Below are positions 1,078 to 45,329 of a stretch of 48,604 nucleotides of DNA, piece by piece. The notes beneath the pieces were generated by a model. The model was not told where the DNA came from, did not search any database, and saw only the letters and a list, made by a program, of their open reading frames with translations. This DNA is from an uncultured Candidatus Saccharibacteria bacterium (GTDB lineage: Bacteria; Patescibacteriota; Dojkabacteria; SC72), in NCBI GenBank assembly GCA_964526165.1, contig CAZGKK010000001.1, forward strand, positions 1 to 48,604, in the 5' to 3' direction. Both the position numbers and the translations under genes were made by a program. The stretch's first letter is position 1. The number at the start of each line of letters is the position of its first letter.

Positions 1078-1815
1078 ATGCAAAAATTCTTTATCAAGCA
1101 CAAACTTTCAGTAGATGACATCACTCACCTTCCGGATTCGGATAGCCGAAATATAATTGAGAAGGGGGAGCTTGGTATTGAAGACTACATAGAAATAGAA
1201 ACATACGAAAGAAAATTCCTTGCTCAGATTACAGATATACATACAAATTCTATTGAGATTCATATTCAAGAAGATTTAGGAGAAAGAGAATCTGACTTTG
1301 TTCCAAGCATTACAATCATTCAATCTTTAAGTAATGATTCCAAATTTAACTATTTCATCGAAAAGAGTGTAGAGATTGGTATTGAGAAGATAATACCAAT
1401 TGAATCAAAATATTCTCTTAAAAGTAAAAACAAAGCAATAAGAGATACAGGTTTTTGGAATAAACTTGTTAGAGATGCAACCGAACAATCAAGAAACATT
1501 TTTCCAACAATCATTGAAAGACCAATATATCTTAAAGAAATTAGTAAATACAAATTTGAAAAAAATTCGATAAAAATATGTCTTGCAACTGAGGTAGATT
1601 CATCAAAACACCTAGACGAATATATACAAAACAAAAACCTTAAAGTCCCAATATATATTGCAATTGGACCTGAAAAAGGATGGGATATTACAGATATTGA
1701 TATTTTTCAAAAAAATAAATTTGATTTTGTAAGATTAAGAGGAAATATTCTTCGTACAGAAACAACTGGGTTAGTAATTGGGAGTATTTTAAAATTTTTG
1801 AAAGGTGAAATATGA
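1078..1815 (+). CDS. rsmE: 16S rRNA (uracil1498-N3)-methyltransferase RsmE
   Basis: 245 aa. IAIGPEKGW (the IGPEGG-type motif) and a C-terminal LRGNILRTETTGLV, both typical of the RsmE/SPOUT family. Confidence 0.8.
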   Translation: MQKFFIKHKLSVDDITHLPDSDSRNIIEKGELGIEDYIEIETYERKFLAQITDIHTNSIEIHIQEDLGERESDFVPSITIIQSLSNDSKFNYFIEKSVEIGIEKIIPIESKYSLKSKNKAIRDTGFWNKLVRDATEQSRNIFPTIIERPIYLKEISKYKFEKNSIKICLATEVDSSKHLDEYIQNKNLKVPIYIAIGPEKGWDITDIDIFQKNKFDFVRLRGNILRTETTGLVIGSILKFLKGEI

Positions 1816-2843: not shown

Positions 2844-2887
2844 CGAATATTCATTAGATTGCCTTCTGCACTGGTAGATAGAACAAA

Positions 2888-2916
2888 GCAGACCTAATTG
2901 TTTAAATTAGATCTGC
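2888..2916. terminator. Hairpin between convergent genes (likely pnp terminator, possibly bidirectional)
   Basis: GCAGACCTAATT (2888-2899) pairs with AATTAGATCTGC (2905-2916): 12 bp with 1 mismatch and a 5-nt loop. On the minus strand it is followed by TTTGTTCT and lies 19 nt after the pnp stop. Confidence 0.6.
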
Positions 2917-2934
2917 CTTCGCTTAAAGAGTAAA

Positions 2935-5013
2935 TTACTTTACCCCTTTGATGCTTAACTTTATTTTTCCCTGCGGGTCGATGCCTACTATCTTTACTTT
3001 GATGATATCGCCCTCGTTAACAAACTTCCTAACATCTTTTACAAATTCATCTGCCATTTCAGAAACATGGAGTAAACCTGCAACATTTGGGGCAATGTCT
3101 ACAAAGGCTCCATAAGGCATAATTGATGCAACTTTTCCTTCATAAATTTCGCCCATAACTGGAACGAAGTTGTACCCGCCTATTGCTTTTGCTGCAAGAT
3201 CAATAGCCTCTTTTGATGAACTATATATATTTACAGTCCCATCTTCTTCTATTTCAATCTCTGCTCCTGTTCTCTCAGAAAGCTCTCTTATATTTTTTCC
3301 TCCTGGACCAATTATTTCACCAATCTTGTCTACAGGGACTTTTATCTGAACAACTCTAGGTGCATATTGAGACATTTCTTCTCTTGGTTGAGCAATTGCT
3401 TCTTTAATTTTTGCAATTACTAATTTTCTTGCGTCCTTGGACTGTGCAAATGTTTGTTTTACTATCTCCATACTCAAACCCTTTGTCTTTGTATCCATCT
3501 GAACTGCTGTAACTCCACTATCTGTTCCGGTAATTTTGAAATCCATATCTCCATAGAAATCTTCAACTCCTTGCATATCTGTAAGAACTTTAAATTCACC
3601 ATTCTCTCCTGTCACTAATCCACAAGCTATTCCTCCAACAACATCCTTAATTGGGACCCCAGAGGCCATCAAAGCCATAGAAGAACCACATGCGGAAGCC
3701 ATTGAGCTAGAACCATTTTCTCCTTGAATCTCACTCATTAAAAGCATTGTATATGGGAAATCAGCTTCTGAAGGAATTACTGGCCAAAGAGCTTTCTCAG
3801 CCAACATACCGTGACCTATTGCTCTCCTACTTGGCATTAATTTGACTCTATCTACATCTCCATATGCAAATGGTAAATCATTATAAAAATGCATGTATCT
3901 TTGCTCTCTTTCACCTTCCATGTCGTCAACTAGCCGAACATCTCTCATACTTCCTAATGTTGCGATTGTGAGAACCTGGGTTACTCCTCTGGTAAACAAA
4001 GCAGATCCATGAACTCTTGGAAGCAAATCAACTTCAGTTGCCATTTCTCTAACCTCTGTGATACCTCTTCCATCAACTCTCTTATTCTCTTCTAATACAA
4101 TCTTTCTGAGCATTTTCTTTTGAAGTTTCTCGTATGCCTCACTTATTGCTGCTTTAGAATGTTTTCCTTCTAATTTTGTAAACAACTCTTCCCTGCTAGC
4201 TTCGTGAAGTTTTGGGTCCCCTGATTCCAAATTCTTTCTTGTAGTTTCAGCTCCTAACAATTCTTCAACAGCAGCAACAACATCCTCTGCTAAACCAGCA
4301 GAAACATATGCCTTCTCCTTTGCCTCAAGCAATTTAACAAACTCCTCTTGTGGTTTAATCCAATCCTTCATCATACCTAAGGATTTCTCCATAGCTTCAA
4401 GTATTTTTTCCTCCAAAACTATATGTGCTCCAGCGTCAATCATTGTAAATACCTCACCATCTCCGGCGACAACAAAGTTCATCCTCTCTTCTTCTGAAGT
4501 CAAATCCATAGCTTTAAGTAAAGAGACAACTTCGTCTTCTTTTAGACCTACTCTAACAGCACCTATTGGTCCTTCAAAAGGAGCAAATGAATTCATCAAA
4601 GCAACAGAAGTTGCATTAATTGCCAAAATTGCAGGGTCATTCTCACCATCGTAAGACATTACTGTTACAATGACACTAACTTCATCTCTGTAGTCATGTG
4701 GAAATCTTGGTCTAATTGCCCTATCTATCATCCTCGCTTTCAAAATAGCATCATCACTTGGGAATCTTTCTCTTTTAACAAATCTAGATCCATTTATTTT
4801 CCCTGATGCATAGAATTTTTCAATATATTCAACTGAAAGAGGAAAATAGTCACTATCTCCTTCTGATTTCTTTGTATTAACATTCACAGTTATTACTGTA
4901 TCTCCCATTCTTGCGAGAATTGAAGATTGAGATTTCAATGCAAGTTTTCCCGTTTCAAAGGAACACTTCCTACCATCTATCTCAAATTCGTGTTTAATTT
5001 CTTTAAACAACAT
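2935..5013 (-). CDS. pnp: Polyribonucleotide nucleotidyltransferase (PNPase)
   Basis: 692 aa. Duplicated RNase PH-like core, KH (GPGGKNIRELSERTGAEI) and S1 (GEIYEGKVASIMPYGAFVD) C-terminal domains. Sits directly downstream of rpsO, the canonical pairing. Confidence 0.95.
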   Translation of the reverse strand: MLFKEIKHEFEIDGRKCSFETGKLALKSQSSILARMGDTVITVNVNTKKSEGDSDYFPLSVEYIEKFYASGKINGSRFVKRERFPSDDAILKARMIDRAIRPRFPHDYRDEVSVIVTVMSYDGENDPAILAINATSVALMNSFAPFEGPIGAVRVGLKEDEVVSLLKAMDLTSEEERMNFVVAGDGEVFTMIDAGAHIVLEEKILEAMEKSLGMMKDWIKPQEEFVKLLEAKEKAYVSAGLAEDVVAAVEELLGAETTRKNLESGDPKLHEASREELFTKLEGKHSKAAISEAYEKLQKKMLRKIVLEENKRVDGRGITEVREMATEVDLLPRVHGSALFTRGVTQVLTIATLGSMRDVRLVDDMEGEREQRYMHFYNDLPFAYGDVDRVKLMPSRRAIGHGMLAEKALWPVIPSEADFPYTMLLMSEIQGENGSSSMASACGSSMALMASGVPIKDVVGGIACGLVTGENGEFKVLTDMQGVEDFYGDMDFKITGTDSGVTAVQMDTKTKGLSMEIVKQTFAQSKDARKLVIAKIKEAIAQPREEMSQYAPRVVQIKVPVDKIGEIIGPGGKNIRELSERTGAEIEIEEDGTVNIYSSSKEAIDLAAKAIGGYNFVPVMGEIYEGKVASIMPYGAFVDIAPNVAGLLHVSEMADEFVKDVRKFVNEGDIIKVKIVGIDPQGKIKLSIKGVK

Positions 5014-5111
5014 TATTTTATTTATTTAATTTAGTTACAAAAATTTTTAGCCAAAAAAGGCTAATGTATTTTAATGGGAAAGTTATTACAAAGGAAGAGG
5101 TAAAGAAAAAG

Positions 5112-5375
5112 CTATATTTTAAGCTTCTTCGCTAAGGTCGTATACCTTTCCTCTTCATTATCTTTTAGATACTGAAGCAATCTCCTTCTTTTTCCAACCA
5201 TTTGGAGTAAACCTCTTCTAGAATGATTATCTTTTTTATGAAGTTTTAAGTGCTCACTTAACTCTTGAATCTGTTTGCTTAACAATGCTACCTGAACTTC
5301 AGGGGAACCCGTATCACCTTCGTGAAGGGCAAACTTCTTAACAATTTGTGCTTTTTCTTCTGTATTTAGTGCCAT
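5112..5375 (-). CDS. rpsO: 30S ribosomal protein S15
   Basis: 87 aa. [17 protein letters not shown] and [29 protein letters not shown] are S15 hallmarks. Confidence 0.95.
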
Positions 5376-5476
5376 ATATTAACACGTTATCATTATATAA
5401 AAATAATTACAAGGGATTCTCCTGTCCGTGCATTGAATATTTTACAATACCTATAGGTCTTCTGTCAATAAGAAAC

Positions 5477-6901
5477 TTACAATATTGGCTTGTCTTCATC
5501 AGCTTCAGAGTGACTTTCAACTTTCTTCTTTCCAAAAAATTCAATCGCTGATCTTAACTCCTCTTTGTCTTTTGCATATTCTTCAAGAGGAATCTTCTGT
5601 TCCCAAGCTTCATATGACTGTAATACAGCCTTTGCTCCAGCCTTTGTCCCCATTGGATGAGAGTGAACTCCACCACCCATTGTTGTAATGAAATCAACAG
5701 TCCCGACAATATCCAAAAATTTACCTAGCAACACTGGATTCAACCCCCCCGAGATAATTGGGGCCATTTTCTTTACAATTCTCCAATAGCCAATATCTGA
5801 GTAATCTTGCCCTTCAGCTTCCTTCTTAATTGCATCAGCTAAATCTAAATCTTTTTCAGGAATCTCTGACCATATCTGATTAAAGAAGTCTCCTTTTGAA
5901 TACAATCGCAATGCGTGATTTACCGCCATGACATCCTCCTTTGGAGAACCCGCCATTTTACCTACTCCAGCAGTTCCTGTATGAATTCCAGATGCACCCG
6001 CCAACCTTGCAAATTTAGTTAATACTGGGACATTAAAACCAAAAGGGGCTTCATCTCTAGTAAAGGCTCCGTGTCCTGCCCTGTGGAAGTGTAAAAATAC
6101 TTCAGGATAGTGCCTTCTAATTGTTTGTACCGCTGTCCAGCCAGATGTTATACCATCAACTAAAAAAGCATAACTTCCGGGTTTCATATTGGATTTGATA
6201 TGCTCTGCCCTCTTTAACATCGTATCGTAATCTGCGGAGGATATATTAAAAGAGTGAACTTTTGTTTTTCCAGTTTCTTGCTCCACCCTATCCATTGCCA
6301 TTCTTACATCTACAACCATTTTTTCAAATGGGCAGAAGTCTTGATCTGCTTGTGGCTCATCATTCTTAACAAAGTCACCGCCACCAGACCAAAAATCGTA
6401 ACAAAGTTCTGCATATTCAGGAGATGTTAGACCTATTTTTGGTTTAATAATGGTACCTAGTACAGGTCTTTTCCCAATATTTAGATATTTTCTCATGTCA
6501 TCAATTGTGTAGTTTGGTCCGTCGTAATGAACGAGCATTTGTGGAGGAAAATAGACATCAAGGAGTTTGCAAATTTTTACATCACTCATACCAAGAACAT
6601 TGCCAACTAAAAAAGTTAGGATATTTTGTACATTCCCTCCGGAATCAAATATTCTCCAAGGATATGCTATCCAAGCCAAATTTTGAGTTTCATCGATTCG
6701 GTATACTACCGCGTTTAAGCTTTCTGAAAAAGGTGTGGAGGTCCCAATTTTTACATTTGAACCAGTTGAAGACTCAGCTGCAACTTCACTTGCGACATCT
6801 TCCAAAGAGACACCCTCATTACCTTTGATTCGAAAAACAGCTAAGAGATATTGTCCATTAAAAACATTGGGATTACCAATCTGAATATATTGTTTTTGCA
6901 T
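5477..6901 (-). CDS. rbcL: RuBisCO large subunit, form II/III- or III-like (no small subunit)
   Basis: 474 aa. Active-site motifs are all present: IIKPKIGL, GGDFVKNDE (carbamylated Lys and Mg ligands), HFHRAGHG, GIHTGT and MGGGVHSHP. No rbcS, PRK or carboxysome genes are nearby. Confidence 0.9.
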   Translation of the reverse strand: MQKQYIQIGNPNVFNGQYLLAVFRIKGNEGVSLEDVASEVAAESSTGSNVKIGTSTPFSESLNAVVYRIDETQNLAWIAYPWRIFDSGGNVQNILTFLVGNVLGMSDVKICKLLDVYFPPQMLVHYDGPNYTIDDMRKYLNIGKRPVLGTIIKPKIGLTSPEYAELCYDFWSGGGDFVKNDEPQADQDFCPFEKMVVDVRMAMDRVEQETGKTKVHSFNISSADYDTMLKRAEHIKSNMKPGSYAFLVDGITSGWTAVQTIRRHYPEVFLHFHRAGHGAFTRDEAPFGFNVPVLTKFARLAGASGIHTGTAGVGKMAGSPKEDVMAVNHALRLYSKGDFFNQIWSEIPEKDLDLADAIKKEAEGQDYSDIGYWRIVKKMAPIISGGLNPVLLGKFLDIVGTVDFITTMGGGVHSHPMGTKAGAKAVLQSYEAWEQKIPLEEYAKDKEELRSAIEFFGKKKVESHSEADEDKPIL

Positions 6902-6948
6902 ATTTTTGGCAGTTTAATTTTATCTATTAAGAATACAGCATCTAAAGT

Positions 6949-6968
6949 ACCAGGTCCATACCTCTTCC
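6949..6968. repeat. Inverted partial copy of the 7.1-kb repeat core, 47-67 nt upstream of the rbcL start
   Basis: Plus strand ACCAGGTCCATACCTCTTCC (6949-6968) is an imperfect reverse complement of GAGGTGAGGTTTGAACCTGGT (7127-7147 and 7221-7241). Confidence 0.8.
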
Positions 6969-7086
6969 TTGTAAATAAAGATTTAACAATTCCAAACCGT
7001 TGCCCAGTACAAAGTTTTTTCAAGTTCAAGCCACTGCCTTATCTAACAATTCTTCCTCAGAAAAACGCTTCGGTCAAGGGAGTCGC

Positions 7087-7242
7087 ATTAGAATGCAATT
7101 TTCTACATATTAACAGATGATGAACTGAGGTGAGGTTTGAACCTGGTCCTTTAGAAGAAAGGCGAGGTCTAGGAAGTTGTATTAGAATGCAATTTCCAAC
7201 ATATTAACAGATGATGAACTGAGGTGAGGTTTGAACCTGGTC
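7087..7242. repeat. Two direct copies of a 62-nt element (7087-7148, 7181-7242) separated by a 32-nt spacer, in the infB-rbcL intergenic region
   Basis: Read directly. attagaatgcaattTTCTACatattaacagatgatgaactgaggtgaggtttgaacctggtc versus the same sequence with TCCAAC: 2 mismatches in 62, period 94 nt. The second copy ends 1 nt before the infB stop codon. The spacer contains the hairpin CCTTT-agaag-AAAGG (7148-7162). Confidence 0.9.
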
Positions 7243-7243
7243 T

Positions 7244-8800
7244 CTATTGAACTCTCTTGTAGCAGTAAATTCCATCTCCCTCTTTTGCTTCTATTTGGTC
7301 GAGCAACTGAATCCCACACTCAAAACCATTTTTAACCTCATTAACCTGATCCTTGTTAATTCGAATACTCTTAATCTTACTCTCTCCAACAATCTCATCA
7401 TTTCTAACAATATATACCTTGCAATCCCTTTTAAGAATTCCTTTCTCTACCTTGCTACCATATATCGTAGTACCATCAGAAAGTGTAAAAATGGCTTTAA
7501 TTAGTGCATTACCAATCTCTTCTTCTGATTCTGAAGGCAAAGACATAGCTACAAGAGCTTCTTTAATTTCTTCAAAAATCTTGTAAATGATATCATAGTT
7601 CTTCACCAACACTCTGTTTTTCTTAGCATAATCGGCAACACCCGCTTCAGTCGGAACCTCAAAACCCAAAACAATTGCCTTCGAAAGCATAGCAAACTCA
7701 ACATCCTTTAAGGTAATGCTACCTACTCCGGAATCTAAAATTTTAACAGTATACTCATCTTCAACTATCTTATTTAAAGTGTTCTTAATTGCTTCAAGAG
7801 AACCCTCTGAAGAACTTTTAACAATAACATTCAATGTTCCACCTTCATCTTCTTTCTTTTCAGTACCTGCGAAAAAATCTTCTATACTTAACTCACCAAT
7901 TTCTTCAACTTCTTTATCAGTTTTCTCAAACACCTGCTCCAAAATTTTCTTATCATTTTTTTCTAAAATGTAGCCCTCAGTTCCTAACTCTAACAAATTT
8001 GAGAGTCCAATTATTTTCCCGCCACATCCACATTCAAGAAGACAGAGATTTCCACCATCCTCAGTTATTAAACCTTTAATTTTTTCAATATATAATTTCT
8101 CGTCAAGTTTGTAACCAAACCAATTCCCCTGACACAAGGAGCCTTGGACTAAAACAGTTGAGGAGATATTACCTTTAAAATTGTCTTTTACAGATTCAAG
8201 AATAAAAATTTTTCCTAAAATACCTTTTGGTAATTCAATATCTTTTCTCAATCCTTCAACTTCAGCGACTAAAAGAATCAAATCTAAAAGTTCATTTATT
8301 CCAGAACCTGTTCTTCCTGACACTTCAATTACAGGAATATTTCCACCAAGCCCCTCAAGCTGCAATCCATTATTTACAATGTCTCTCTTCACCTTTTCTA
8401 AATCAATGTTTGGAAGGTCGGTTTTGTTGATGACAACAATGGGCTTGACTGTGGATTTCTTAATAATTTCTATTGATTCTTTTGTTTGAGGTTGAACCCC
8501 ATCGTTTGCAGCAACAATTAGTAATACAATGTCAGCAATTGAGCCACCCCTTGATCTCATTAAATCAAAAGCTTCATGTCCTGGAGTGTCAACAAATGTA
8601 ATTGATTGATTCTTAGCGGATAATTGAACTGTAAAAACTGACACTTTCTGAGTAATACCACCAGCTTCTGAACTTTGCACATCAGCTTCTCGTATCCTAT
8701 CTAGAATAGTTGTTTTCCCATGGTCAACATGGCCAAGTATCGTGACGACAGGTGTCCTTGCCTTACATTCTTTAGTTGTACTTTTAGTACTTTTGACCAT
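7244..8800 (-). CDS. infB: Translation initiation factor IF-2 (compact form)
   Basis: 518 aa. The G domain starts at about residue 17 ([24 protein letters not shown]). Immediately downstream of nusA. Confidence 0.95.
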
Positions 8801-8821: not shown

Positions 8822-10009
8822 TTATTCTTCTTTTGAACTCTCATCTTCTTTTGTTTTTTTTACTTTTTTCTTTTTTACTTCCTCCGTGACTTCCTCTTTT
8901 TTTTCTTCGATAACTTCTTCCCTTGTTTCAACCTGCTCTTTATTTTTTTCATTTTCGATTGCTTCAGGATCTGAAGGAACAATATCTATCTTGTAACCAG
9001 TCAATTTCCATGCGAGCCTAACATTTTGCCCTTCTCTCCCGATAGCTAAGGAAAGTTGATCGTTTGGTACAATAACAGTTGCTGTATCATCAACAATTCT
9101 TACATCATCTATCTTTGCAGGACTCAATGAGTTTGCAATGAATTTCTCTGGGTCATCATCCCATTCTATGATATCAATCTTTTCCTCTCCAAGTTCATTC
9201 ATTACATTTGCAATCCTGACTCCTCTTTGACCAACACATGACCCAATTGGATCAACACCTTCTTGATGAGAAACCACTGCGACCTTACTTCTTGAACCTG
9301 CTTCTCTTGCAATAGCTTTTACTTCAAGAACTCCAGATTCAATTTCTGGAACCTCTAATTTAAACAAACCGATTAAAAAATTTGGATCGGCTCTTGATAC
9401 CACCATCTGAGAATCAACAATATCTTTAAGTAATACTTTGTATCTATCACCCAATCTGTAAAATTCATTTGAAATCTGTTCCTCGAGTGGCATATATGCA
9501 GTCGCTTTCCCGACTTCAAAGATAACTTGGCCTCTTTGCATTCTCTGCATTAAAGCTGTATATATCTCGCCAACCTTATCACTATATTCACTAATCACAG
9601 CTTCCTTTTCTGATTCTCTTATCTTCTGTAAAATTACCTGCTTTGCTGTCTGCGCTGCAATTCTTCCAAAATCCTCTGAAGGCATCTCTATTTGAACGGA
9701 ATCTCCAACTTCAACACTAGGAGAAATCATCTCTGCCTCGGATAATGAAATTTCTTTCTCTGAATTCTTAACCTTCTTAACAACCTCTTTGCTTGCAATT
9801 AATTTAAACTCTCCACTTTCTCTGTTTAATTCAACAGACCAGTTAGAAAGCTCATCTTCCTCAGGAACTTCCAGTCCATATTTCTCTTTTTTGTAAGCAA
9901 CTAGAATTGCTTCTTCCAAAGCAACAAAAATCTCTTCTTTATCTATTCCTCTTTCAGCAGAAATCTGATTGATTGCCGCTATAAATTCCGATGTCATTGA
10001 CATATTCAA
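8822..10009 (-). CDS. nusA: Transcription termination/antitermination factor NusA
   Basis: 395 aa. N-terminal domain, S1-like segment and KH repeats (GSCVGQRGVRI, GREGQNVRLAWKLTGYKIDI), plus a charged K/E tail. nusA-infB synteny. Confidence 0.95.
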   Translation of the reverse strand: MNMSMTSEFIAAINQISAERGIDKEEIFVALEEAILVAYKKEKYGLEVPEEDELSNWSVELNRESGEFKLIASKEVVKKVKNSEKEISLSEAEMISPSVEVGDSVQIEMPSEDFGRIAAQTAKQVILQKIRESEKEAVISEYSDKVGEIYTALMQRMQRGQVIFEVGKATAYMPLEEQISNEFYRLGDRYKVLLKDIVDSQMVVSRADPNFLIGLFKLEVPEIESGVLEVKAIAREAGSRSKVAVVSHQEGVDPIGSCVGQRGVRIANVMNELGEEKIDIIEWDDDPEKFIANSLSPAKIDDVRIVDDTATVIVPNDQLSLAIGREGQNVRLAWKLTGYKIDIVPSDPEAIENEKNKEQVETREEVIEEKKEEVTEEVKKKKVKKTKEDESSKEE

Positions 10010-10216: not shown

Positions 10217-11308
10217 CTACTCGGATCCTTCGCGCAAGGATTCCCAAGTTTCCTTTTCATCTTTTGAGAGCTTTGTTGGAATATCAATATTCACTCTAAC
10301 ATAATGATCTCCTCTAGATTTCTCAGAATTTAGCACTGGAGCACCCTTCCCTCTTAATCTGAAAATGGTTCCTGGTTGAGTCCCTTTTGGAACTTTTAAT
10401 TTTACATCTTCGTAAATAGTTTTTACTGGAATTGTATCTCCAAGAACTGCAGTGTAAACTGGGATAGAAATTTCAGAATAAATATCGTTTCCTCTCCTTT
10501 CAAATATTGTTGAAGTCTCGACTTCAATTTCGATGTACAAATCTCCAACGACACCACCATTCCTTCCAGCATTTCCTCCACCCCTAAATCTTAAAACCAT
10601 TCCATCGTATGCCCCTGCTGGTACTTTAATGGTAAAATTCTCTTCTACACTATTCACTCCAGTTCCTCCACATTTTGGACAAGGCTCTTCAACTATTTCT
10701 CCAGTACCATTACAATTTTGGCAAGTACCCATCATTGCCATTTGACCAAATATGGTGTTTCTAACCTGTTGTTGCTGGCCCGTTCCCTTACAAACTGGGC
10801 ACTCCTTCTTTCTCCCTGACTTGCTTCCAGTACCTTCACACTTCTCACATTTTTCCTCTCTTCGAATCTTTATTTTAAAATCACCACCCTTCATTGCCTC
10901 GTCAAAAGAAAGCTTAATTCTGTAACGAATATCTGAACCAATATCTTGTCTAGGTCCCCTCTGTCCACCGAAATCAAATCCAAAACCACCACCTGCGCCT
11001 CCAAAAAAGGTGCTAAATATGTCGCCCATATCAAATGGGGCGCCTCCGAAGTCAGAATATCCACTTGAAGTCCCAGGATTAAAACCTGCTGTTCCTGCAT
11101 GACCGTATTGGTCATATGCTGAACGCTTTGAATCATCGGAAAGTATTTCGTATGCTTCTTGAATCTCTTTAAACTTATCCTCGGCATCTGATTCTTTATT
11201 CACATCCGGATGATATTTCTTCACCAAATTCCTGTAAGCTTTTTTAATCTCAGAAGCAGACGCTTTCTTTTCTATACCCAAAATTTCGTAGTAATCTCTT
11301 TTTTCCAT
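10217..11308 (-). CDS. dnaJ: Molecular chaperone DnaJ (start taken at MEKRDYYEILG; the ORF track extends to 11332)
   Basis: J domain with HPD (KKYHPDVN), a G/F-rich linker and four CxxCxGxG zinc motifs (CEKCEGTG, CPVCKGTG, CQNCNGTG, CPKCGGTG). Confidence 0.95.
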   Translation of the reverse strand: MEKRDYYEILGIEKKASASEIKKAYRNLVKKYHPDVNKESDAEDKFKEIQEAYEILSDDSKRSAYDQYGHAGTAGFNPGTSSGYSDFGGAPFDMGDIFSTFFGGAGGGFGFDFGGQRGPRQDIGSDIRYRIKLSFDEAMKGGDFKIKIRREEKCEKCEGTGSKSGRKKECPVCKGTGQQQQVRNTIFGQMAMMGTCQNCNGTGEIVEEPCPKCGGTGVNSVEENFTIKVPAGAYDGMVLRFRGGGNAGRNGGVVGDLYIEIEVETSTIFERRGNDIYSEISIPVYTAVLGDTIPVKTIYEDVKLKVPKGTQPGTIFRLRGKGAPVLNSEKSRGDHYVRVNIDIPTKLSKDEKETWESLREGSE

Positions 11309-11386
11309 AACCCAATATTTTAGCAAACTCATTTACTAATTGCCAGCCCTGTTTCTCATTTCAACTAAATCTGCTAATATGTTCTT

Positions 11387-21740: not shown

Positions 21741-23522
21741 ATGGAAGAGGTCAGAAGAGTAACCACAACAAAAAAGAGTAACCGGTTAGTTAACACACTA
21801 TTAATTGTTGCTGGGGCTTTAGGATTGGCTTTAATCCTAGTGGCCATATATTTCTACATGATTAAACCCAACACACAGAAACCGCAAGTCACATCAAAAG
21901 TTTGTGTGTGTTACTATGTTGACCCAGCTGTTACCACTGAGTGTGGAGATCCAAGGAAAGGATTTCTTTTCAAAGAGGTAACTACGCAAGGGGATACTTC
22001 ATGTCAAAGTCAGTGTCAAACAAGCTCATTATCTATGACTGACATTGAGAGTAACACAAAGCAAGAGCTTTTCTTGTCCTGTTCTATGTCCAGTATTCAA
22101 GATACAAGATGTACCGAAATGACAATTTTGAACAAAGCCGGAAAAATTGTTGTTGGGAATATACCTGAAGATGAAGAAATTACTGTGGAAGCCAAATTTG
22201 ACAAGAAATATGAGAATCCAACATTCAAAATCAACAATACTAACGAAGAGCCAGATTCTATATCTGATGATGGCCTTAGTATAAAGAAAAAATTCTCGTC
22301 ATTTAAGACAACTACTCTTGATATTGTTGCAACTGCTGACGGAGAAGACGGAGAACCTATTAATTCGCCACTTTGTAAAAGATTAATTGAGGTAGAACAG
22401 AAAGGACAATCGTCCGTTACGGGTCTACTACTATCTAAAAGAAACACAGAAACTACTACAAAGATTTCTGAGGCCATCCTTAGGATATCAAATGTTACAG
22501 ATGCAAATGATATAAAGATTAGTTTCTCTTTTGACAATGAAGATTTCGCAGAATTAAGTATGATGAAAGGTTTTTCTCTCGATACTTCAAGAGGTGAATT
22601 CTCCATTATTGAACAAGATTTGTACAATTCAGAGAACTTTGTAGATGCAGTAAGTTTCTCCCAATTAGATGGATATATTGGAGAGCTTACTGTGAAAACG
22701 GAAATTTCAAGATTAGGTGCTTCTCTTGGAAGCGCCGAAGCAACAATTACATTTGACGAGCCTGAGACTGAACCAGAGGAACCAGAAGAACCAGAGGAAC
22801 CGGAAGAACCAGAGGAACCGGAAGAACCATTAGAATCGAATTTCTCAATTACAACTACAACCAACCTCACTTGTATTGAAAGAGTTGAACCAAATAATAC
22901 GATAATCTTTACTGTTAATATCAAAAACAATTCAACAATTTCTCAAAGTGTTTTAGGGATTACAGATAAATTACCCCTCGGTTTTACATATATTGCAGAC
23001 TCAACAAAAATCAATAACATAAGCATGTCAGATAGAAACTACTTAACGACTGAGCAAGTAGGTGAGACAACAGAGCTTGTATGGGAAACAGCTGATGGTT
23101 GGTCTATTGATTCAAACCAATCTTTAGTAATTGTTTTCCAAGCTATTGCTGGACCAAATGCACTCACCGGAGAAAACCAAAACGAAGTTGTAATTGAACC
23201 TGCTCAAGTTCCAACTGACCCAGCGACATTAAGAGCATCTTCAGCAGTGACTGTCTCTCAAAACTGTAATCCAACAGATGAGACTGAACAAACACCTGAA
23301 ACGGGAATCTTTGATGAAATAGCAATCCAAATTGGAGCCGGAATACTTGTCATTCTTGTAGGTTGGTACATACACTCAAAACCATTTGGACAATTACTTG
23401 CAAAAAAGGTAGTAAATTCTGGAGTTTTCCATGGAGCTGAAATGACATCTTGGAAATTATTCAAACCAAAGAAATACTTCGAAGAGATTACGATTAAGAA
23501 AATAAAGAAGAAAGGAAGTTAG
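21741..23522 (+). CDS. Surface protein with (PEE)n linker, DUF11-like repeat domain and C-terminal TM (the track start at 21726 is TTG)
   Basis: N-terminal TM (LVNTLLIVAGALGLALILVAIYFYMI) and a Cys-rich segment. PEEPEEPEEPEEPEEPEEP linker. DUF11-like block (ITDKLPLGFTYIADSTKIN). TPETG is followed by the hydrophobic helix IAIQIGAGILVILVGWYIH. Confidence 0.6.
   Translation: MEEVRRVTTTKKSNRLVNTLLIVAGALGLALILVAIYFYMIKPNTQKPQVTSKVCVCYYVDPAVTTECGDPRKGFLFKEVTTQGDTSCQSQCQTSSLSMTDIESNTKQELFLSCSMSSIQDTRCTEMTILNKAGKIVVGNIPEDEEITVEAKFDKKYENPTFKINNTNEEPDSISDDGLSIKKKFSSFKTTTLDIVATADGEDGEPINSPLCKRLIEVEQKGQSSVTGLLLSKRNTETTTKISEAILRISNVTDANDIKISFSFDNEDFAELSMMKGFSLDTSRGEFSIIEQDLYNSENFVDAVSFSQLDGYIGELTVKTEISRLGASLGSAEATITFDEPETEPEEPEEPEEPEEPEEPEEPLESNFSITTTTNLTCIERVEPNNTIIFTVNIKNNSTISQSVLGITDKLPLGFTYIADSTKINNISMSDRNYLTTEQVGETTELVWETADGWSIDSNQSLVIVFQAIAGPNALTGENQNEVVIEPAQVPTDPATLRASSAVTVSQNCNPTDETEQTPETGIFDEIAIQIGAGILVILVGWYIHSKPFGQLLAKKVVNSGVFHGAEMTSWKLFKPKKYFEEITIKKIKKKGS
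22761..22829 (+). repeat. In-frame 9-nt (gaaccagag/gaaccggaa) tandem repeat encoding (PEE)n
   Basis: Read directly in the 22761-22829 interval; encodes EPETEPEEPEEPEEPEEPEEPEEP. Confidence 0.85.
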
Positions 23523-43378: not shown

Positions 43379-45019
<1,641 letters not shown>

Positions 45020-45029
45020 TTAATCTAGG

Positions 45030-45329
45030 TTATCTAATAATTGCAAGAATATCTCCAACATCTAGTAAGAGATATTTCTGTCCATCAACTTCTAATTCGT
45101 CTGGTGAATATTTTTTAAAGTAAATCCTATCTCCAACCTTTACGTTAAAATCAATTTCCTTGCCTTTTACTTTTCCTTCCCCAAGCTTAACTACTACACC
45201 TGTCTCGGGCTTTTGATCTTCTGTAGATGAAGGTGGAAGAATTAATCCCCCTGTTGTCTTTTCATCAACTTTATCAGGAAATACAAGAACACGTTTGCCA
45301 ATAGGCGAAATTTTTATATCTTTTGTCAT
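45030..45329 (-). CDS. groES: Co-chaperonin GroES
   Basis: 99 aa. PIGKRVLV, mobile-loop TTGGLILP and GDRIYFKKY. Immediately upstream of groEL. Confidence 0.95.
   Translation of the reverse strand: MTKDIKISPIGKRVLVFPDKVDEKTTGGLILPPSSTEDQKPETGVVVKLGEGKVKGKEIDFNVKVGDRIYFKKYSPDELEVDGQKYLLLDVGDILAIIR

Follow-up and report, generated by a model that had tools for sequence, protein, structure and literature searches.

In a Candidatus Dojkabacteria (CPR) genome, the position of the RuBisCO gene beside ribosomal and RNA-decay genes appears to result from a single insertion, specific to the lineage, into a gap whose genes are often swapped, and not to reflect membership of a functional operon. We assign a probability of about 0.8 to the reading that the gene encodes an active-type RuBisCO of AMP salvage, that it was inserted a single time in one subclade, that it and rpsO belong to separate transcription units and that its adjacency to the gene for polynucleotide phosphorylase (PNPase) is incidental. 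The source genome, G000, has a size of about 0.6 Mb and a minimal metabolism, and its assembly is a draft of 52 contigs that is 89.6% complete. The window, that is, the whole stretch of DNA analyzed, covers 48,604 nt of it. On the minus strand, dnaJ, nusA, infB, the RuBisCO gene (rbcL, 474 aa), rpsO and pnp follow in this order, the last five on the same strand with short gaps (Table 1). Pfam matches of the reading frame and its flanking genes bore out the position between infB and rpsO given in the initial annotation.

Table 1. Features of the RuBisCO locus, in window positions
Feature	Position	Strand	Basis or remark
dnaJ	10217-11332	-	flanking gene call
nusA	8822..10009	-	Pfam NusA_N, KH_5
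infB	7244..8800	-	518-aa short IF-2; Pfam GTP_EFTU + IF-2; last gene ahead of the insertion site
Tandem intergenic repeat, two copies (7059-7148 and 7153-7242)	7059..7242	-	copies 87% identical
rbcL promoter-like site, TGGACC-17 nt-TATTCT	6930..6958	-	ends 28 nt ahead of the ATG
Form II/III RuBisCO large subunit, ATG start, 474 aa	5477..6901	-	Pfam
rpsO promoter-like site, TTGACA-18 nt-TAAAAT	5439..5468	-	consensus scan, 11/12 matches
Ribosomal S15 autoregulatory leader	5319..5429	-	Rfam RF00114; overlaps the rpsO start
rpsO (ribosomal protein S15)	5112..5375	-	Pfam Ribosomal_S15, E 2.3e-34
Terminator-like hairpin, rpsO/pnp gap	5047..5064	-	scan; consensus match only
pnp (polynucleotide phosphorylase)	2935..5013	-	Pfam RNase_PH x2, PNPase, KH, S1

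The reading frame matched RuBisCO_large_N (PF02788, E 6.8e-28) and RuBisCO_large (PF00016, E 1.6e-87), the latter being the only such match in G000. The form was assigned by ranking scores against solved structures and by NCBIfam cut-offs, not from a form I-IV reference tree. The 474-aa protein scored 891 bits against PDB entry 9DYP, 666 against 8VGS and 646 against 5MAC from Methanococcoides burtonii; the scores were 315 bits for form II, 229 for form III and about 180 for form I. It passed the NCBIfam model NF010002 (541 bits vs. a cut-off of 489) and scored far under the cut-offs of the form III models. A further criterion was an insert, about 29 aa long, that lies between the loop-6 lysine and the SGG motif and is absent from forms II and III: over residues ~345-380 the protein aligned to 5MAC without gaps, and its Pfam and form II alignments broke at ~345.

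The catalytic and substrate-contact set (K175, K177, K201, D203, E204, H294, R295, H298, H327, K334, S379, G381, G403/404, E60 and N123 in spinach numbering) was placed through its motifs and through alignment with 5MAC and 9DYP. The protein contains KPK (K153, K155), DFVKNDE (K179, D181, E182), HFHRAGH (H273, R274, H277), GIHTG (H307), GKMAG with the loop-6 lysine (K315), SGG (384-386; S384, G386), GGG (409-411), ESSTG (E43) and VGNV (N101), among which we located every motif that the initial annotation had named. The sole departure seen was Ser48, a conservative change from the Thr of 5MAC and 8VGS (T65 in spinach) that is common to the crystallized homolog 9DYP. The score ranking, the cut-offs and the full set of motifs support a catalytically intact form II/III enzyme, as had been proposed; from its sequence, the gene encodes an active-type RuBisCO with predicted carboxylase function. 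The search of the 89.6%-complete assembly for a small subunit (RuBisCO_small, PF00101) gave no match. The PDB entries 9DYP and 9DYR, deposited as 'ribulose-1,5-bisphosphate carboxylase', are 80% identical to the protein over 469 residues and share with it the length class, the form II/III insert, the catalytic motifs and the Ser at the T65-equivalent position, but differ in 20% of the sequence and in the C-terminal tail; our literature search found no paper on 9DYP. The M. burtonii enzyme, 59% identical, has all catalytic residues in common and no gaps from the loop-6 lysine to SGG, but it comes from an archaeal host, carries Thr at the T65-equivalent position and is encoded in another genomic context.

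A role in nucleotide or ribose salvage, which the initial annotation had put forward, is the one expected for a form II/III RuBisCO. The accompanying statement that the gene has no pathway partners stood for the window, where no e2b2, deoA, phosphoribulokinase (PRK) or small-subunit gene was found, but failed for the genome as a whole. An e2b2 homolog (C30:4821-5768) adjoins an AMP phosphorylase (deoA) homolog, which starts at C30:5786-6793, reaches the contig end and continues at C36:1-483. The former matched Pfam IF-2B (E 1.3e-52); its best NCBIfam match was TIGR00511, at 169 bits where the cut-off is 314, and MtnA-type models scored nearly equally; the adjacency of deoA favors its identification as e2b2. 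The AMP phosphorylase homolog best matched TIGR03327; its full-length ortholog in G013 scored 457 bits against a cut-off of 535 and passed TIGR02645 and NF003338. Because phosphoglycerate kinase (PGK) was found in none of the 23 genomes of the genus, RuBisCO is the only visible source of 3-phosphoglycerate (3-PGA). G000 has genes for pyruvate kinase and an iPGM-like protein. Enolase went undetected in its 89.6%-complete assembly; 19 of its 22 genus mates have it.

We infer that RuBisCO performs the last committed step of the AMP (pentose-bisphosphate) route of nucleotide salvage. AMP phosphorylase would split a nucleoside monophosphate into the base and ribose-1,5-bisphosphate, the e2b2 isomerase would convert the latter to ribulose-1,5-bisphosphate, and RuBisCO would turn this and CO2 into two 3-PGA, from which phosphoglycerate mutase, enolase and pyruvate kinase would produce pyruvate with a gain of ATP. 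The same metabolic picture of a form II/III RuBisCO with the AMP pathway was published for WS6/Dojkabacteria (PMC5113843, PMC9868632). The form II/III RuBisCOs of Dojkabacteria (WS6) and other CPR bacteria (Wrighton 2016, PMC5113843; Jaffe 2019, PMC6389311) resemble ours in phylum, enzyme form, partner genes, a truncated glycolysis that leads from PGA to pyruvate, and a patchy, transfer-shaped distribution of RuBisCO forms; the main texts of these two papers do not mention the infB/rpsO position or an RNase neighbor of e2b2-deoA. The pathway of Thermococcus kodakarensis (Sato 2007; Aono 2015; both as cited by PMC6389311) uses the same three enzyme families from NMP through ribose-1,5-bisphosphate and ribulose-1,5-bisphosphate to two 3-PGA, but its RuBisCO is of form III, whereas the enzyme studied here is of form II/III and comes from a PGK-less bacterium. 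Enzyme and pathway are already described for Dojkabacteria, and their finding alone adds little.

The position of the gene had been described as the slot of rbfA and truB. In the classical E. coli-type arrangement, the order is nusA-infB-rbfA-truB-rpsO-pnp. However, rbfA was found in none of the 61 genomes of the class, and truB, present in 51 of the 61, is far from infB (e.g. at 470 kb vs. 106 kb in G019), which rules out that RuBisCO displaced the two genes. An infB ortholog occurs in 58 of 61 relatives. In 11 close relatives the direct neighbor of infB is rpsO, and deeper relatives have a divergent DHH/NrnA-like gene (370-470 aa) at the site instead. This gap gene was considered as rbfA/truB or as a RuBisCO and rejected, single sequences giving no Pfam hit and their profile giving DHH/DHHA1. 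An rbfA-truB slot does not exist in the Dojkabacteria lineage of the source genome. With the E. coli-type arrangement the locus shares nusA-infB upstream and rpsO-pnp downstream, a predicted promoter and S15 leader of rpsO's own and the hairpin between rpsO and pnp; it differs in that the class is without detected rbfA, has truB elsewhere and ancestrally had the DHH/NrnA-like gene or nothing in the gap. Other cargo 3' of infB comprises hsdM (G039), two unknowns of 475 and 1171 aa (G004) and a 196-aa membrane-type protein (G036).

All 12 carriers of the insertion have rbcL adjoining infB. Six further genomes of the genus (G019, G013, G020, G017, G016 and G010), which come from independent records and of which one is a single contig of 748,838 bp, likewise have infB-rbcL-rpsO-pnp; three carriers (G005, G007 and G011) have infB-rbcL-groES-groEL, in place of rpsO-pnp. 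In a tree of NusA and InfB, the 10 sampled infB-rbcL genomes formed one clade (SH-aLRT 93), and its sister, G002, and the successive outgroups have infB directly beside rpsO. In the RuBisCO tree, the 12 infB-linked sequences also grouped in a single clade (SH-aLRT 90), whose inner topology matched, and its sister is the RuBisCO of G036, a member of another genus with the gene at another locus. The flanking-gene tree and the RuBisCO tree both point to a single insertion, in the common ancestor of 12 genomes that make up a subclade within one genus. The inserted piece was rbcL with ~45 nt of the sequence upstream of it, the target was the ~100-bp spacer that separates the infB stop codon from the rpsO promoter, and rbcL was inherited vertically afterwards. 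Elsewhere in Dojkabacteria, form II/III RuBisCO genes neighbor PRPP synthetase, an EF-G-like GTPase, MgsA, a Na/Ca exchanger, peptidases and others. The G036 RuBisCO locus was also sought as an 'empty site' in G000, where only its PRPP synthetase has a homolog.

Upstream of rbcL, 8 of 11 carriers have the pattern T(A/G)GAC(C/A/T)-17-TAT(T/C)CT at a constant distance from the ATG, and 10 of 11 have the -10-like hexamer, each hexamer agreeing with the sigma-70 consensus at 4 of 6 positions; this conserved promoter-like site probably serves rbcL. The promoter-like site of rpsO starts 9 nt past the rbcL stop codon and is conserved in 12 relatives, and it, like the S15 leader (RF00114, 41.8 bits vs. 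a gathering score of 39.5, E 4e-7), is kept whether rbcL or infB is the upstream gene. These signals predict a promoter and an S15 autoregulatory leader that belong to rpsO itself. A consensus scan found no terminator-like site in the infB-rbcL or rbcL-rpsO gaps. The infB-rbcL spacer is otherwise variable (~70 to ~490 bp), with repeats or MITE-like elements in it. In G000, a 94-nt repeat begins directly after the infB stop codon; it has relatives on C7 (three tandem copies, 91-nt period), C2 and C27, is absent from the infB-rbcL spacers of related genomes and folds as RNA no better than shuffled sequences (z +0.4 to +0.7). These repeats are strain-specific filler of the spacer. A conserved structured leader or riboswitch before rbcL was considered and rejected: Rfam (E<=1) gave only the S15 leader over the locus, the repeats and the proximal 144 nt fold like shuffles, and the repeats are a dispersed family missing from the relatives' spacers. 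Thus rbcL would be read mainly from its own modest promoter, with read-through from nusA-infB possible, rpsO-pnp would be a separate S15-autoregulated unit, and the adjacency of rbcL to the PNPase gene would be incidental.

Could the position be under selection? RuBisCO would then be co-transcribed with nusA-infB, and perhaps with rpsO-pnp, and salvage would be tuned to translation and RNA turnover with PNPase products feeding it, much as the initial annotation envisaged. We consider this unlikely, though the five genes share a strand and short gaps, the adjacency of infB and rbcL persists in every carrier, and the pathway consumes RNA-derived nucleotides (PMC5113843). Without a terminator-like site behind infB or behind rbcL, read-through from nusA-infB is a possible counterpoint to separate units; the persistence of infB-rbcL could reflect selection or recency. 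Against these points stand the conserved promoter-like site and S15 leader of rpsO, the promoter-like site of rbcL's own, the loss of the rpsO-pnp link in three of 12 carriers, the limitation of the arrangement to one subclade, unrelated cargo at the site in other genomes and unrelated neighbors of RuBisCO in other Dojkabacteria. The separate signals of rpsO and rbcL, together with groES-groEL in three members, mean that a selected coupling to PNPase is not supported. Moreover, PNPase releases nucleoside diphosphates, not the monophosphates that are the substrates of AMP phosphorylase, and e2b2 and deoA lie at another locus, beside a beta-CASP RNase.

The insertion of an active enzyme for salvage has also to be weighed against readings that we regard as still less probable. 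An inactive or re-purposed RuBisCO-like protein is very improbable: the protein has Ser at a substrate-contact position that is Thr in other enzymes, and a WS6 RuBisCO was assayed without detectable activity (PMC5113843), but the WS6 protein was without catalytic residues, the full set of which is present here, the same Ser occurs in the 80% identical 9DYP, a deposited carboxylase, and RuBisCO-like (form IV) models scored 98-160 bits against cut-offs of 409-700. We attach hardly any weight to Calvin-cycle autotrophy, because, even if form II/III enzymes fix CO2 and can complement a RuBisCO-deletion phototroph (PMC5113843), PRK was not found anywhere in the 89.6%-complete assembly, PGK is missing throughout the genus set, and the genome is small with a minimal metabolism. 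An assembly or binning artefact, conceivable in a draft of this many contigs, is equally negligible given the identical order in six independent genus records, one of them a single contig, and a G+C content over the gene (0.36-0.37) that is the same as in its flanks.

A gene-order link to RNA decay lies outside the window. Throughout the class, a gene for a TTHA0252-type beta-CASP 5'-3' exoribonuclease stands immediately upstream of e2b2-deoA; in G000 it occupies C30:3422-4813. Together with the gene for a CCA-adding enzyme, these genes form a cluster that sometimes encloses RuBisCO, as in families f2 and f5. Our literature search found no paper tying AMP phosphorylase to beta-CASP. This cluster is a better gene-order link to RNA decay than the infB-rpsO-pnp locus, and it is the more useful by-product of the analysis. 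We suggest, tentatively and with more doubt than confidence, that the RuBisCO/AMP pathway of Dojkabacteria may be a dedicated RNA-catabolic module, in which 5'-NMPs from beta-CASP would pass through AMP phosphorylase and RuBisCO to yield ATP, and that this subclade may have re-acquired RuBisCO on its own behind infB. If so, the general idea of the initial annotation would be right, by way of another RNase and another locus, and read-through from nusA-infB could tie the RuBisCO level to growth.

Taken together, these data indicate that the classical rbfA-truB slot is not to be assumed in CPR genomes, that foreign or relocated genes have repeatedly settled in the gap behind infB in the Dojkabacteria phylum, and that a location next to housekeeping genes says little about what a gene does when genomes are so small and rearranging. 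The partner cluster offers a concrete, testable link between RNA breakdown and a RuBisCO-based gain of energy in these organisms.

Pfam searches identified all genes of the minus-strand series nusA, infB, rbcL, rpsO and pnp, in the order given by the initial annotation. Contig C1, which the window spans completely, comes from a draft genome of 579,764 bp (G000; 52 contigs, 89.6% complete).

Features of the rbcL locus and of the loci compared with it (no prefix, window; C, other contigs of the same genome; L, loci fetched from related genomes)
Feature	Position	Strand	Basis or remark
dnaJ	10217-11332	-	Pfam
nusA	8822-10009	-	Pfam
infB (518 aa)	7244-8800	-	Pfam
Two tandem 94-nt repeats	7059-7242		infB-rbcL spacer
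rbcL (474-aa ORF)	5477-6901	-	Both RuBisCO large-subunit domains (Pfam)
TTGACA-18-TAAAAT	5468-5439		Promoter-like, upstream of rpsO
S15 leader	5319-5429		Rfam, 41.8 bits vs 39.5
rpsO	5112-5375	-	Pfam
Hairpin	5047-5064		Terminator-like; separates rpsO and pnp
pnp	2935-5013	-	Pfam
Long hairpin, 15 pairs	2885-2919		3' of pnp, at convergent junction with rsmB
groES-groEL	43406-45329	-	
Four-gene cluster	C30:1920-6793 + C36:1-483		CCA-adding-enzyme-type nucleotidyltransferase, beta-CASP RNase, e2b2, deoA
e2b2 candidate	C30:4821-5768		IF-2B family
Relatives of the 94-nt repeats	C7:19510-19790, C2:~22855-22894, C27:~1710-1745		
infB-rpsO gap gene	L062:4071-5234, L066:4720-5943, L067:4671-5999 + 11 more		Alignment A1
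HsdM	L065:4341-5924		After infB, G039
Two large proteins	L046:3991-8926		After infB, G004; no Pfam match
Small membrane-type protein	L055:4219-4809		After infB, G036
infB-rbcL-groES-groEL	L053:4148-7619, L039, L054		G005, G007, G011
RuBisCO beside PRPP synthetase	L013:2901-3917		G036
Inverted-repeat element	L074:4053-4239, L077:4096-4332		infB-rbcL spacers, G019 and G016

Among solved structures, the rbcL protein matched 9DYP/9DYR (891 bits), 8VGS (666) and 5MAC (646) best, against ~315 bits for form II, ~229 for form III and ~180 for form I enzymes. Counted on alignments, it was 80% identical to 9DYP and 59% identical to 5MAC, the form II/III enzyme of Methanococcoides burtonii. The insert characteristic of form II/III (residues ~345-380) aligned gaplessly to 5MAC, and the Pfam and form II alignments were interrupted there. 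The protein passed NCBIfam NF010002 (541 vs a cut-off of 489) and fell below the cut-offs of the form III model (343 vs 497) and of the RuBisCO-like models (98-160 bits vs 409-700). The set of catalytic motifs was complete, the sole conservative difference being Ser48 at the position of spinach T65, which 9DYP shares. Judged by score rankings and the insert, the rbcL product is a form II/III RuBisCO, predicted to be catalytically intact as first proposed. The assignment is right and already known: form II/III RuBisCO has been described from Dojkabacteria/WS6 in association with AMP phosphorylase and ribose-1,5-bisphosphate (R15P) isomerase, upper glycolysis being absent and RNA-derived ribose being proposed as fuel (PMC5113843; PMC6389311; PMC9868632). 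PMC5113843 and PMC6389311 are both silent on infB, ribosomal-protein genes and synteny at the rbcL site. The nearest public loci, with proteins 79-89% identical, were labelled Candidatus Dojkabacteria, except for one labelled Saccharibacteria.

The genome contained one RuBisCO_large match, rbcL itself. Phosphoribulokinase and the RuBisCO small subunit, said at first to be missing from the 48 kb, were found nowhere in G000. The same remark about pathway partners held for the window but not for the genome, where the best match of an IF-2B-family protein (e2b2) was the R15P isomerase model TIGR00511, and a homologue of AMP phosphorylase (deoA) began 17 nt further on, reached the end of C30 and resumed on C36; judging from relatives, the two pieces are contiguous. 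Pyruvate kinase and an iPGM-like gene were present. Enolase was absent from the draft, but 19 of 22 genus mates have it, and since enolase and truB are both missing here but found in most relatives, they probably lie in the unassembled 10%. Phosphoglycerate kinase was not found in any of the 23 genomes of the genus (G000-G022), which leaves RuBisCO as the sole evident supplier of 3-PGA to a stub pathway from PGA to pyruvate, in agreement with the published picture.

RuBisCO had been thought to occupy an rbfA-truB slot. There is no such slot: a class-wide sample of 61 genomes yielded no rbfA, and truB, present in 51 of them, was remote from infB. We retrieved the sequence that follows infB in 40 relatives for comparison with the window proteins. 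In 11 relatives (five of the same genus, six from other genera of the family) rpsO-pnp followed infB by ~100 bp. Deeper families carried one conserved gene of 370-470 aa between infB and rpsO. As a single sequence it had no Pfam match; its profile matched DHH/DHHA1 phosphodiesterases and NrnA nanoRNases (5O1U, E 2.5e-20; 8IU7, E 2.4e-10). Only 2 of 14 members matched Pfam DHH, and most seem to have a degenerate DHH motif at the N terminus. G000 contained a canonical DHH paralogue, on C6, but no orthologue. Other cargo behind infB included a type I restriction-modification methylase, two large proteins and a small membrane-type protein.

In a NusA+InfB tree of 41 genomes, those 10 in which RuBisCO directly follows infB grouped as one clade (SH-aLRT 93), nested among infB-rpsO-adjacent lineages with G002 as sister. 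In a second tree, built from 35 form II/III proteins, the 12 infB-linked genes were likewise monophyletic (SH-aLRT 90), and their inner groupings matched; sister to them was a gene of G036, from a different genus, located ~72 kb from infB. These data indicate that RuBisCO arrived behind infB by one insertion. In G036, whose RuBisCO is the closest outside the subclade (81% identical), the gene is convergent with that for PRPP synthetase, likewise a ribose-phosphate enzyme. Three other genus members carry a different form II/III lineage placed elsewhere in the genome, and in several the sole RuBisCO is ~33% identical. This pattern agrees with the patchy, transfer-shaped distribution of RuBisCO forms described by Jaffe et al. 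(PMC6389311).

The promoter-like site upstream of rpsO starts 9 nt past the rbcL stop codon. In a 12-genome alignment this site and the S15 leader were conserved with either rbcL or infB upstream, placing the insertion between the infB stop and the rpsO promoter and suggesting that rpsO-pnp retained its own control afterwards. The final ~45 nt before rbcL were conserved among carriers, and 8 of 11 genomes had a promoter-like T(A/G)GACN-17-TAT(T/C)CT 27-30 nt before the rbcL ATG. The remaining spacer varied from ~70 to ~490 bp, with an additional small ORF in G017. In G019 and G016 it held a ~190 bp element bounded by inverted repeats and dispersed in these genomes (21 and 11 matches, respectively), whose right end provides TAGACC, the -35-like hexamer of the promoter-like site before rbcL. 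The tandem repeats of the G000 spacer belong to a 91-94-nt intergenic family occurring in pairs or triplets with a common CCTAGACC-type motif, and were absent from the relatives' infB-rbcL spacers. RNA of the two G000 repeats and of the proximal 144 nt of this spacer folded no better than shuffled sequence. No terminator-like site was found between infB and rbcL, so read-through from infB is possible.

The initial annotation also held that RuBisCO may be co-expressed with translation and PNPase RNA-decay genes. In three sister genomes (G005, G007 and G011), rbcL is followed by groES-groEL in place of rpsO-pnp; in the window, groES-groEL lie 38 kb distant on the rbcL strand. Form II/III genes elsewhere in the class have unrelated neighbours. 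PNPase yields NDPs; AMP phosphorylase uses NMPs. Because the link is not kept, the neighbours are unrelated, the cargo is swapped and PNPase makes NDPs, we read the position beside rpsO-pnp as incidental. Neither the slot nor the co-expression is supported by these comparisons.

The e2b2 and deoA genes lie outside the window in a same-strand cluster of four, with gaps of 65, 7 and 17 nt. Its beta-CASP protein most resembled TTHA0252 of Thermus thermophilus (E 7e-88), an RNase for which 5'-3' exonuclease activity has been described (PMC4229858). The cluster is conserved across the Dojkabacteria class (L085-L134): each of the 29 family loci with a flank extending to the beta-CASP position showed the order beta-CASP, e2b2, deoA, and the beta-CASP gene abuts the e2b2/RuBisCO/deoA block in 16 of 20 loci from other sampled groups. 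In families f2 and f5, the RuBisCO of those genomes, 36-37% identical and of another form, is located within the cluster. PMC5113843 and PMC6389311 do not mention an RNase neighbour of e2b2-deoA, and our literature search found no paper pairing AMP phosphorylase with beta-CASP. Digestion of RNA by a 5'-3' exoribonuclease would supply the AMP pathway with its substrates, 5'-NMPs, and the cluster seems a better link of RuBisCO to RNA decay than adjacency to pnp. That RuBisCO serves to break down nucleotides derived from RNA is, as a general idea, already published; it gains support here from the C30 cluster, and the PNPase route does not.
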